Positions 39,301 to 42,300 of a stretch of 64,000 nt of DNA are shown one piece after another; the first letter of the stretch is position 1; each line of letters starts with the position of its first letter. The stretch spans positions 2,624,001 to 2,688,000 of the forward strand of contig CM000150.2 of assembly GCA_000004695.1 (NCBI GenBank), in the 5' to 3' direction. This stretch comes from Dictyostelium discoideum (Eukaryota). The position numbers and the translations under genes are program-made. The notes under the pieces are model-generated. The model was not told where the DNA came from, did not search any database, and saw only the letters and a list, made by a program, of their open reading frames with translations.

Positions 39301-42300
39301 AACGTTTAGAGAATGGGTAACCATATGACAACCATTCCTTTTCAATTAAAACTTTAAATCCATCCATTGTACGATAATAAGGATCCAATAATATTTGTGC
39401 TAAACTTGATAGCTGTAATTCTATATCTGGTCCTGAACTTGAATTTTGAATCAATACTGATCTACCTTGATCCACATGCATCGCAATATTAATTGCAGCC
39501 GATAGAATTGGTTTCAAAGGATCTAACCAAAAGAATCTAATAGTTTCTGACCACTCTGAATCTGGATTACCCAAATGTAAATGTAACAATCTATTAAATC
39601 TTTCTCTAACTTTATTTGGTGGTGGTAAATTTAAAAATTCAATTTGACATCCAATCATTGTCGAGGAATAAGAACCACCTGAACCTGTATCAAATACATT
39701 CAACATACTACTACTCTTTATATCCAATATTCCCCTTAGGAAATCAATATCCTCTTGACAAACCTGCGGTATACTTGATGAACTAATTGATTGATGAATT
39801 CTTGGTGATGATGTTTGTGGTGACATTAATAAATTTAATGAATGTTGTGATGGTGGTAAATTTGGTGTTGGTGATTGTATTAATGGTGTATTTGAAATAT
39901 TTTTATTTAATATTGATGTTTGACCATTATCAATTGTTGTTGATCTACTACCACTACCACCACCATTATTATTATTATTATTATTATTATTATTATTATT
40001 ATTATTATTATTATTATTATTATTATTACTATTATTATTATTATTATTATTATTATTATTATTATTATTATTATTATTATTTATATTATTATTATTACTA
40101 TTATTATTATTGGCTAAATTGCTACTACTTGAATTTGGTGAATTTGGAGTTAATAAATAATTACTACTACCATTATTTTGATCTTCTGGTGAAGTTGCTC
40201 TTGTTATACTTGATTTTTGAGTTGGATGTGACCAAGCTAAAACTGGAAAACCATAACTACGATAATAGGCTGATGTTACAACTATATTATCACTAACTGA
40301 TTTTGGAACCACTGAAGTTGGTGGATAATGTTCACAAAGTTTTGATTGAGTGGTAGTTCTCCAAAGATCCCAAGAGACTCCAATTCTATTATATTCTTGT
40401 AATAAAGAATGATCAGGAAAACATTCAGTATTACCAAAACTAGATTCTTTACTATTATATGCAAAAATAGTATCCAAAGTTGGTACTGAACATTTTGTTA
40501 ACAAATCTTTAAACTTTACCAATACATGTGAATTAATTTGAAATCCAATGATTTTACAACGAAAATCTTTACAATATATTTTAAAACTATCATAAAGTGA
40601 ACCTGTTTTTACCATTTTCCATCTATATATCATTGAAAGTGGTATTTCTGTATTATCTAATGTTGATAATTTATTTAAATTATTATTATTATTATTATTA
40701 TTACTATTACTATTAATAATACTATTAATATTATTATTACTATTACTATTTATATTATTTATATTATTGTTTATATTATTTATATTATTATTTATATTAT
40801 TATTTATATTATTATTATTATTATTATTATTTGAGTTTATTAATGAATTATTTATTGGGTTTAAAATTGCACCATTACTATTAGTCGATGTATGAATTGG
40901 TGAAGTTGTTATTGGAGTGTTTAAATTTGAAGAGGAAGAAGTTGAACCACCACCACTTAAAGTTGCATTAGTGGGACCACTACCACCATTACCATTATAA
41001 CTTCCAAATAGAGTCATAATGGATAGTATTGAAAGATTTTGAGTTGAAGCAAATGATGAGATTGAAGTTGATGATGTTGAATTTGGTATAGTTGAAGAGT
41101 TTGAATTTGAATTTATAAAGATGATTCTAAAATTAGTTACCCATATTTCACCCAACATTGCTTTATTCGGTGGGAAATTACATTTATCTACACAAAATAT
41201 ATTCTCTGCTGAAAAGAGTATTTTCTCTCCTTCCAATTGTTGAATTTTTAAATGTGAAAATAATAAATACAGTGGTATATTTTGAATTAAATCAATTGCA
41301 ACCTTTTTACATAAACTATTCTCTGTATTACTTAATGATCTAAGATTACCACTTGAAGTGGTTGTAAAATCGCTACTTGGTTGTCTAACTTGAATTAATG
41401 GTGGTATTTGTGAATTATTATTATTACTATTATTATTATTATTATTATTACTACTAGTACTATTATTATTGATATTATTATTATTATTATTATTATTATT
41501 ATTATTATTATTATTATTATTATTATTATTATTATTATTATTATTATTATTATTATTATTATTATTATTATTAACAACATTACTATTATTATTATTTGGT
41601 AATGATGTTTGATGTAACATTGAATTTAAAGAATTACCACTATTTTCTCTATTATAACTTTTAACTAAATTTTGTGACTGAAAATCTGGACTTTCATCTC
41701 CATTTCCAGAATTTGATAAATTACTATTACTATTATTATTATTATTATTATTATTATGATAATTTGATACGTTTAAATTATTATTTGATGTTGATTTTGA
41801 AATTGGTGGTGATGAATTTGATGGTGGTGGTGGTGGTGGGTCTAATAGTACATTTCCCAAAATGAATGGACCGATTATATTTGAAAGTGAATCAAGTAAT
41901 GATGCATCTCTTTGGGTTAAATTATATAAAAACAACATGATATGTTTTAATATGATTCTACTTTTTACTGGAATATCATAAAAATAAGTTGATCTTGATA
42001 AATCGGTATTTGATGGTGATGATGAGTTGTTGTTGTTATTATTATTATTATTATTATTTGTTTTTAAATAGGTAATATACAATGAATAAGTAAGTGAGGT
42101 TTGGGAAAATATAATTTGTAATAAATGTAATATAAAACTACATAAAACTTTTGGATTCTTTTGTTGTGCTGTTAATTCAATATTATTATTATTGTTGTTA
42201 TTGTTATAATAATAACTACTACTGCTACTACTACCACTACTATTACCATTAAAACTTCCACCTGTACCACTTGATAAACCTAAACCTAAATTACTACCAC

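Follow-up and report, generated by a model that had tools for sequence, protein, structure and literature searches.

The pats1 locus

The window considered here is the whole stretch of 64,000 nucleotides of Dictyostelium discoideum DNA, which is very AT-rich (GC content 13-37%). The gene of interest is read from its minus strand and is arranged as follows, all positions being those of the window.

33392..43176, minus strand: coding sequence of pats1 (DDB_G0269250), three exons, stop codon included, 3184 aa
43176..42931, minus strand: exon 1 of pats1
42804..42567, minus strand: exon 2 of pats1
42462..33392, minus strand: exon 3 of pats1, stop codon included

An open reading frame (ORF) of 2977 codons (33392..42325, minus strand) constitutes most of the last of the three exons and contains the 56-residue myotubularin peptide GRSVLIQNSSSGPDIELQ / GRSVLIQNSSSGPDIELQLSSLAQILLDPYYRTMDGFKVLIEKEWLSYGYPFSKRC, which is encoded exactly at 39466..39299; the range 39330-39500 given for it in the earlier note covers the peptide but lies about 30 nt off its true borders. 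Splicing at GT..AG introns joins the exons into a single frame of 3184 aa. Residues are numbered below according to the ORF, and 207 should be added to obtain positions in the spliced Pats1 protein. The coding span of 9785 bp coincides with the published chromosome 1 interval 2657392..2667176, under which Additional file 5 of PMC2927912 prints DDB0191503 / DDB_G0269250 / XP_645923 as pats1, and the spliced translation follows DDB0191503 (PMC2927912) letter for letter at the N-terminus, over the whole myotubularin region and at the C-terminus, these being the stretches of the published protein visible for comparison. Since both sequence and span match DDB0191503, the gene is D. discoideum pats1, encoding a large Roco GTPase/kinase. 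An exact protein database look-up with the ORF product and with the spliced 3184-aa protein returned no match.

Domain architecture of Pats1

From the N- to the C-terminus the protein is composed of the following domains.

42780..43176, minus strand: N-terminal ubiquitin-like domain (borderline FERM-F0 / RA-like), spliced residues ~1-90, interrupted by intron 1
40490..41221, minus strand: PH-GRAM domain, ORF ~369-612, by AlphaFold2 model and superposition on MTMR2
39116..40465, minus strand: myotubularin-like phosphatase-fold domain, ORF 621-1070, by Pfam PF06602, PDB matches and fold
37841..38818, minus strand: leucine-rich repeats (LRRs), ORF ~1170-1495, by Pfam LRR_14 (2e-18) and repeats visible in the translation
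36254..37777, minus strand: Roc GTPase (ORF 1517-1697) with COR-A/COR-B (ORF 1711-2024)
35414..36205, minus strand: protein kinase domain, ORF 2041-2304, by Pfam PK_Tyr_Ser-Thr (7e-53)
33842..34702, minus strand: C-terminal WD40 beta-propeller, ORF ~2542-2828

The FERM-F0 / RA-like call for the N-terminus is borderline, with Pfam FERM_f0 reaching 26.7 bits where the cut-off is 26.9 and RA giving E 0.004; in this part the protein is 66% identical to its Polysphondylium violaceum orthologue. At the opposite end several WD40/beta-propeller families of Pfam are matched, the best with 4e-14, each under its family cut-off. Pfam recognizes Roc (6e-22, match to ORF 1517-1650), COR-A (1e-41) and COR-B (3e-36), COR following directly after Roc, and the motifs of the GTPase (G1 GQENVGKT, G3 DFAGQ, G4 THLD) as well as those of the kinase (GEGGAALV, VAVKK, HRDLKSPN, DFGLS, APE) are intact; judging from these motifs, the Roc-COR-kinase part looks enzymatically competent. 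The fusion to a Roco GTPase/kinase described in the earlier note is thus supported by the Pfam series LRR-Roc-COR-kinase-WD40. A predicted inactive myotubularin, LRRs, Roc-COR and kinase follow each other in one polypeptide, which is the order by which the IMLRK class is recognized; the protein is of amoebozoan origin and is identical with pats1, the founding member of this class, which was given its name by Kerk and Moorhead, further comprises roco9 and nine Entamoeba genes and is reported to have a PH-GRAM domain in its proteins as well (PMC2927912).

Myotubularin homology and fold

The domain is matched by Pfam PF06602 (Myotub-related) with E 8e-70, the match spanning positions 4-351 of the 352 in the profile. 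In a PDB sequence search the structures of MTMR2, MTMR1, MTMR6 and MTMR8 are hit with E from 1e-47 to 6e-62, the latter value belonging to the MTMR2 chain 1zsq. ORF residues 345-1110 were modelled with AlphaFold2 from a 50-sequence alignment; the folded parts reach pLDDT 80-97, and of two disordered poly-Asn/Ser inserts one lies in the PH-GRAM and one in the phosphatase-fold domain. Superposed on MTMR2 (5gnh, 1lw3, 1zsq, 1zvr) with PH-GRAM included, the model gives target-normalised TM scores of 0.83-0.85, and Foldseek compares this model with MTMR2 at E 3e-29 (TM 0.85). The alignment of this region to the myotubularin active-site region, proposed in the earlier note, is therefore backed by profile (E 8e-70), sequence (MTMR2, E 6e-62) and fold.

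The model shows a PH-GRAM domain (strands 25-61 and 214-252, helix 256-268, pLDDT 80-95), though Pfam GRAM gave no match in the Pats1 ORF. This domain is split by an insert of ~140 aa (41092..40679, pLDDT < 50), and its second half is alignable to MTMR2 by sequence. The low-complexity insert inside the phosphatase-fold domain is of similar length, ~145 aa (40174..39737). PDB matches to SAP30, Nup205 and NDC1, all within the poly-Asn/Ser insert, were set aside as composition artefacts.

Active-site register and lost residues

The following short segments are decisive for the assessment of catalytic capacity.

39419..39445, minus strand: degenerate P-loop N961-SSSGPDI-E969, equivalent to H-CSDGWDR-T of MTMR2
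39299..39325, minus strand: YGYPFSKRC, with MTMR2 R459 replaced by Pro1003 and R463 kept as Arg1007
39683..39700, minus strand: NVFDTG, with MTMR2 N330 falling on Asp879 (HMMER) or on a gap (MAFFT)
39116..39136, minus strand: CNNYKER, ORF 1064, the sole C-x5-R string in Pats1

The P-loop of MTMR2 is placed without gaps on Q960 N961 S962 S963 S964 G965 P966 D967 I968 E969. The same register was obtained by HMMER against 1zsq, by MAFFT alignments of 13 and of 23 catalytic halves, by the 50-sequence MAFFT alignment, where near-invariant H, C, S, G, W, D, R and T columns stand at positions 617-625 of the first sequence, and by the model. In the latter the loop lies between the strand VLIQN (model 613-617) and a helix starting from Ile968 (model 624), which is the topology of the P-loop in the PTP fold. 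The nucleophilic Cys thereby becomes Ser962 (codon TCA, 39442..39440), the phosphate-binding Arg becomes Ile968 (codon ATA, 39424..39422), the loop Trp is exchanged for Pro966, and the general-acid Asp is kept as Asp967 (MTMR2 D422). The loss of both catalytic residues, as well as the conservation of the P-loop flanks relative to MTMR2, had been stated in the earlier note, and both statements hold in this register. Its juxtaposition of HCSDGWDRT with QNSSSGPDIE captured the loss of the motif but set nine letters against ten, and the Cys position is taken by Ser, not by the Asn that this pairing implied.

A regular-expression search for CX5R over all 3184 aa of Pats1 found no such motif in register or elsewhere as a P-loop. 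Its single hit, CNNYKER, aligns to CNSEQQR in the C-terminal helix of MTMR2, is helical in the model and was rejected as an alternative P-loop. The comparison with the Pfam family and with myotubularin structures, by which the earlier note had wished its claim to be checked, leaves the region myotubularin-related and lacking CX5R in register.

The meaning of these replacements can be read from human MTMR1, in which Cys438 is the nucleophile, Asp443 the general acid/base and Arg444 the phosphate-binding residue, while Asn351 (MTMR2 N330), strictly conserved in MTMRs, contacts the D1 phosphate, Arg480 (MTMR2 R459) contacts the D5 phosphate and Arg484 (MTMR2 R463) tethers the Asp (PMC4809516). 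Activity of the C438S, D443A, R444A and R484A mutants is abolished or reduced, with partial activity on PI(3,5)P2 remaining in R444A (PMC4809516). Two of these mutated positions are altered in Pats1 as well (Cys to Ser and Arg to Ile), and beyond that the N330 and R459 contacts have been lost, the D422 and R463 equivalents being present. As far as sequence and model allow one to judge, the domain cannot use the canonical Cys-phosphoenzyme mechanism of myotubularins, because the Cys, Arg, N330 and R459 equivalents are lost.

Relatives and constraint on the P-loop

Eight relatives, in which a myotubularin-like domain is combined with LRR-Roc-COR and mostly also with a kinase, came from a long-query search together with a profile search against 1.84 billion representatives.

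Polysphondylium violaceum KAF2071594.1: 2833 aa, collinear with Pats1, 71% identity over the core
Acytostelium subglobosum XP_012757658.1: relative with myotubularin-like domain and LRR-Roc
P0174: EukProt protein, IMLRK-type relative
Soliformovum irregulare: two IMLRK-type relatives
Protostelium nocturnum: one IMLRK-type relative
Planoprotostelium fungivorum: one IMLRK-type relative
P0270: IMLRK-type relative from a metagenome

Homologue searches with the 551-aa domain (poly-Asn insert included) and with a clean 236-aa half yielded stand-alone myotubularins only, not longer than 964 aa, with pats1 and its orthologues absent from the matches; matches of the homologue search, long query included, did not exceed ~2525 aa.

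The P-loop Arg is absent from all eight recovered proteins with myotubularin, LRR and Roc (the P-loop of Roco9 standing outside this count), and seven of them have Pro at the position of MTMR2 R459, the exception being Gln in P. violaceum. Active myotubularins keep HCSDGWDR in each of the 13 sequences aligned, five of them dictyostelid, and the nine P-loop columns are 89% invariant among these enzymes versus 13% elsewhere in the core. In four Pats1 orthologues this relation is reversed: 11% of the P-loop columns are invariant, the share being 43% in the remaining core and 50% in the flanks, making the P-loop the least conserved part of the myotubularin domain in this set (n = 4). Such a pattern of substitutions means, as we read the alignments, relaxed constraint on the pocket of Pats1 with the fold kept by selection. 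Release of the pocket with maintenance of the fold favours a scaffold and speaks against the dead pocket being a conserved site for a ligand.

In a neighbour-joining tree of catalytic halves the Pats1 clade is supported by 78% and the pair D. discoideum and P. violaceum by 84% of bootstrap replicates. Monophyly of all IMLRK domains receives only 24-58%, which is too low for us to propose that inactivation happened once. Pats1 groups with amoebozoan IMLRKs and not with animal sequences, in a set containing no animal inactive MTMR.

In the P. violaceum orthologue, which reads QHC-GDPDID, His-Cys occurs in a loop shortened by one residue, and Ile stands at the position of the Arg as in D. discoideum; this orthologue has GHQF in place of GYPF. 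The His-Cys dyad is absent from D. discoideum, A. subglobosum and P0174, P. violaceum being the closest orthologue available in a set that lacks D. purpureum and other group-4 Pats1 sequences. Either Cys was lost repeatedly and independently after the loss of Arg, or it was regained. It is possible, though doubtful, that the pocket decays stepwise and incompletely in some species, the dead domain then being a scaffold under drift and not a conserved reader of lipids. Whether Cys was lost repeatedly or regained, some Pats1 orthologues could retain a reactive Cys, for example as a redox sensor or with residual activity.

Function of the module

The PH-GRAM and phosphatase-fold module of Pats1 is very probably a pseudophosphatase, whose fold is kept and which would act as a non-catalytic targeting or interaction scaffold. 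The fold would have been retained while Cys was exchanged for Ser and Arg for Ile and two more phosphate contacts disappeared, and the module may thereafter serve the Roc-COR-kinase part by targeting or interaction; membrane contact, if any, would most plausibly be made via PH-GRAM rather than via the dead pocket. The likely pseudophosphatase of the earlier note is in line with the CX5R lost in register, the lack of an alternative motif and the further contacts missing from alignment and model. Its description of the module as regulatory or lipid-binding and not an enzyme stands in the latter respect, but evidence from the pocket speaks against lipid binding through the dead site and leaves PH-GRAM as the remaining candidate. 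Inactivity of the domain is something that we infer, because a literature search found no enzymatic or lipid-binding assay of the Pats1 myotubularin domain in the searchable literature. According to review PMC6320773, referring to Abysalh et al. (2003), the pats1 null mutant has a cytokinesis defect that is rescued by the kinase domain alone, which implies that there is no strict need for the module under over-expression.

Two observations concern the residual chemistry of the pocket. The general-acid Asp and the tethering Arg (MTMR2 D422 and R463) are retained, and loss of the Arg alone is not absolute, as exemplified by the partial activity of MTMR1 R444A on PI(3,5)P2 (PMC4809516). Since the exchange of Cys for Ser is the classical way of trapping substrate, the backbone amides of the P-loop may still bind phosphate to some degree.

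A more specific variant assumes that the module forms a heterodimer with an active myotubularin, of which Dictyostelium has nine, and brings a 3-phosphatase to the Roco kinase. Such a role is established for inactive MTMRs in animals, e.g. MTMR5/13, MTMR9 and MTMR12 (PMC3688503, PMC3395661), it was already proposed for pats1 by Kerk and Moorhead (PMC2927912), and active dictyostelid myotubularins do exist (P0035, P0055, P0091, P0092, P0096). However, dimerisation of MTMRs uses a coiled-coil (PMC4809516); in Pats1 the LRRs come straight after the domain. We regard heterodimerisation as unlikely, albeit compatible with the scaffold explanation rather than opposed to it.

Still less likely is that the dead pocket reads phosphoinositides, binding PI3P or PI(3,5)P2 unhydrolysed and recruiting Pats1 to endosomal or cleavage-furrow membranes. 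The exchange of Cys for Ser is the one that traps substrate in 1zsq and 1zvr (MTMR2 C417S), and Pats1 still has the backbone of the P-loop together with Asp967 and Arg1007; nevertheless, three of the side chains contacting the D3, D1 and D5 phosphates (equivalents of R423, N330 and R459) are Ile, Asp or a gap, and Pro, respectively, the loop of P. violaceum is one residue shorter, and the drift of the P-loop among orthologues relative to the rest of the core is unexpected for a conserved ligand site. Catalysis of a non-canonical type, with Ser as nucleophile or with a different substrate, could appeal to Asp967 and Arg1007 and to the residual activity of MTMR1 R444A on PI(3,5)P2 (PMC4809516), but C-to-S mutants of MTMR1 are inactive (PMC4809516), Cys and Arg are lost jointly, together with the Trp-to-Pro exchange and the N330 and R459 equivalents, and the loop is unconserved among Pats1 orthologues, all of which makes it highly improbable. 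That a sequencing error or a decaying pseudogene mimics motif loss has a negligible chance, for although ATA (Ile) differs from AGA (Arg) by one base, the published dictyBase protein is identical in the parts visible for comparison, namely both termini and the myotubularin region, a 9-kb ORF runs uninterrupted through DNA of 13-37% GC, Arg is also missing from orthologues, and the pats1 null mutant has a phenotype (PMC6320773).

A scaffold built of PH-GRAM and a dead phosphatase fold is, as far as inactivity is concerned, already known: it was published for pats1 in 2010 (Kerk and Moorhead, PMC2927912), and the present result is a rediscovery. These authors described the myotubularin domain as inactive and its function as one that 'has not been experimentally tested', and proposed membrane localisation through PH-GRAM or binding to active myotubularins, i.e. 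regulation and not catalysis (PMC2927912). Later reviews repeat this reading of the domain; PMC6320773 still draws it as 'PTP domain', and another review calls it a lipid phosphatase domain. Minor additions made here are the residue-level register with Asp kept, the structure model, the pattern of relaxed constraint, the wider amoebozoan distribution and the His-Cys of P. violaceum. Among Dictyostelium models for Roco kinases of the LRRK2 type, Pats1 is one of the more thoroughly studied, and assignment of its N-terminal 'phosphatase' to pseudoenzymes matters for reading mutants and domain diagrams. The dead module may serve for targeting, act in autoinhibition or recruit an active myotubularin.

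Comparison with known systems

Pats1 of the IMLRK class as described by Kerk and Moorhead in 2010 (PMC2927912) is the same gene, with the same 9785-bp span and the same sequence where comparable. Other IMLRKs, including Roco9, nine Entamoeba histolytica genes and the relatives found here, likewise have a myotubularin-like domain lacking CX5R followed by LRR, Roc-COR and mostly a kinase. Proteins of the Roco9 type (P0176, P0177) start with an N-terminal RhoGAP, whereas Pats1 has a ubiquitin-like N-terminus and a C-terminal WD40 instead, and the Roc domains of Entamoeba IMLRKs are degenerate (PMC2927912), unlike those of Pats1 with their intact motifs.

With human MTMR2, MTMR1 and MTM1, active 3-phosphatases of PI3P and PI(3,5)P2 (1lw3, 1zsq, 1zvr, 5c16), Pats1 shares PH-GRAM and the PTP fold (TM 0.85). 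Its identity to MTMR2 is ~40% in the catalytic half, and conservation extends to the P-loop flanks, the LLDPYYRT helix, the general-acid Asp and R463. It differs from MTMR2 by SSSGPDI in place of CSDGWDR, by loss of the N330 and R459 equivalents, by two long disordered poly-Asn inserts and by fusion to a Roco kinase. Metazoan inactive MTMRs (MTMR5/Sbf1, MTMR13/Sbf2 and MTMR9-12) have the same fold, are devoid of Cys and Arg and operate as regulators or adaptors (PMC3688503, PMC3395661); their origin is independent according to Kerk and Moorhead (PMC2927912), and their partners are DENN or coiled-coil domains, whereas those in Pats1 are LRR-Roc-COR-kinase, with no Pfam match to DENN in the ORF. 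LRRK2 and other Roco kinases have the LRR-Roc-COR-kinase-WD40 core in common with Pats1, GTPase and kinase motifs being intact, but where LRRK2 carries N-terminal ARM/ANK repeats, Pats1 has the ubiquitin-like domain, PH-GRAM and the dead myotubularin module.

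Low-complexity inserts and N-terminal region of Pats1

Two folded domains of the Roco GTPase/kinase Pats1 are interrupted by poly-Asn/Ser-rich inserts of about 140 residues each, both predicted to be disordered (pLDDT <50):

41092..40679, minus strand, between strands of PH-GRAM
40174..39737, minus strand, within the phosphatase fold

Word-based protein search with the Pats1 domain was swamped by these inserts, and the PDB matches to SAP30 and Nup205 were likewise produced by them and were discarded as spurious.

Judged from sequence, the first ~90 residues of Pats1, encoded by exons 1-2 (43176..~42780, minus strand), look like a ubiquitin-like fold. 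Among Pfam profiles, FERM_f0 scored 26.7 bits on this segment, just under the cut-off of 26.9, while RA matched it with an E-value of 0.004; identity over the same ~90 residues reaches 66% with the P. violaceum orthologue and 47% with that of A. subglobosum. No mention of a ubiquitin-like N-terminal fold was found in the descriptions of Pats1 that were consulted.

Genomic environment of pats1

Protein-coding neighbors and tRNA calls in the window are as follows, the flippase, lipoyl ligase, M24 and FAD oxidase assignments being derived from Pfam applied to unspliced raw ORFs.

18577..19428, minus strand, lipoyl ligase catalytic domain (Pfam, raw ORF)
21714..24689, minus strand, C-terminal part of P4-ATPase flippase (Pfam, raw ORF)
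29185..30465, minus strand, M24 Xaa-Pro aminopeptidase (Pfam, raw ORF)
31370..33301, plus strand, gene for a protein with six FNIP repeats (E 1e-64)
44447..46641, minus strand, two adjacent ORFs with PnrA/Bmp-like ligand-binding and family-3 (7tm_3) GPCR domains
47531..47612, minus strand, "tRNA-Asn" of 82 nt lying between genes in AT-rich DNA; its anticodon, ATT, is unusual (ARAGORN)
52041..53561, plus strand, RGS-domain protein
54066..56954, plus strand, tandem coronin of coronin-7/POD type following the RGS gene (two DUF1899 + propeller + WD40_4 units)
59188..60009, minus strand, FAD-linked oxidase (Pfam, raw ORF)
63279..63351, plus strand, normal tRNA-Glu(TTC) (ARAGORN)

The FNIP-repeat gene and pats1 are convergent, with stop codons only ~90 bp apart, and the PnrA/Bmp-like and 7tm_3 ORFs, situated directly upstream of pats1, probably belong to a single gene for a GABA-B-like receptor, with an intron between them. 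The 82-nt "tRNA-Asn" is probably either a false positive or a gene that contains an intron.

A chance C-x5-R string, and the P-loop in the closest orthologue retrieved

A naive motif scan could misread the string CNNYKER of Pats1 (39116..39136, minus strand) as an active site; this candidate was rejected as a chance C-x5-R, occupying the same position as CNSEQQR of human MTMR2 in a C-terminal helix of the domain.

In P0294 (Polysphondylium violaceum Pats1, KAF2071594.1), the closest orthologue retrieved, residues ~925-945 were aligned against 39448..39419, and the His-Cys dyad is kept there (LIQHCGDPDID), the Arg position being Ile. This His-Cys pair may reflect repeated loss elsewhere or reversion. 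Compared with D. discoideum Pats1, the P. violaceum loop is one residue shorter, and GHQF is found where the D. discoideum protein has GYPF.
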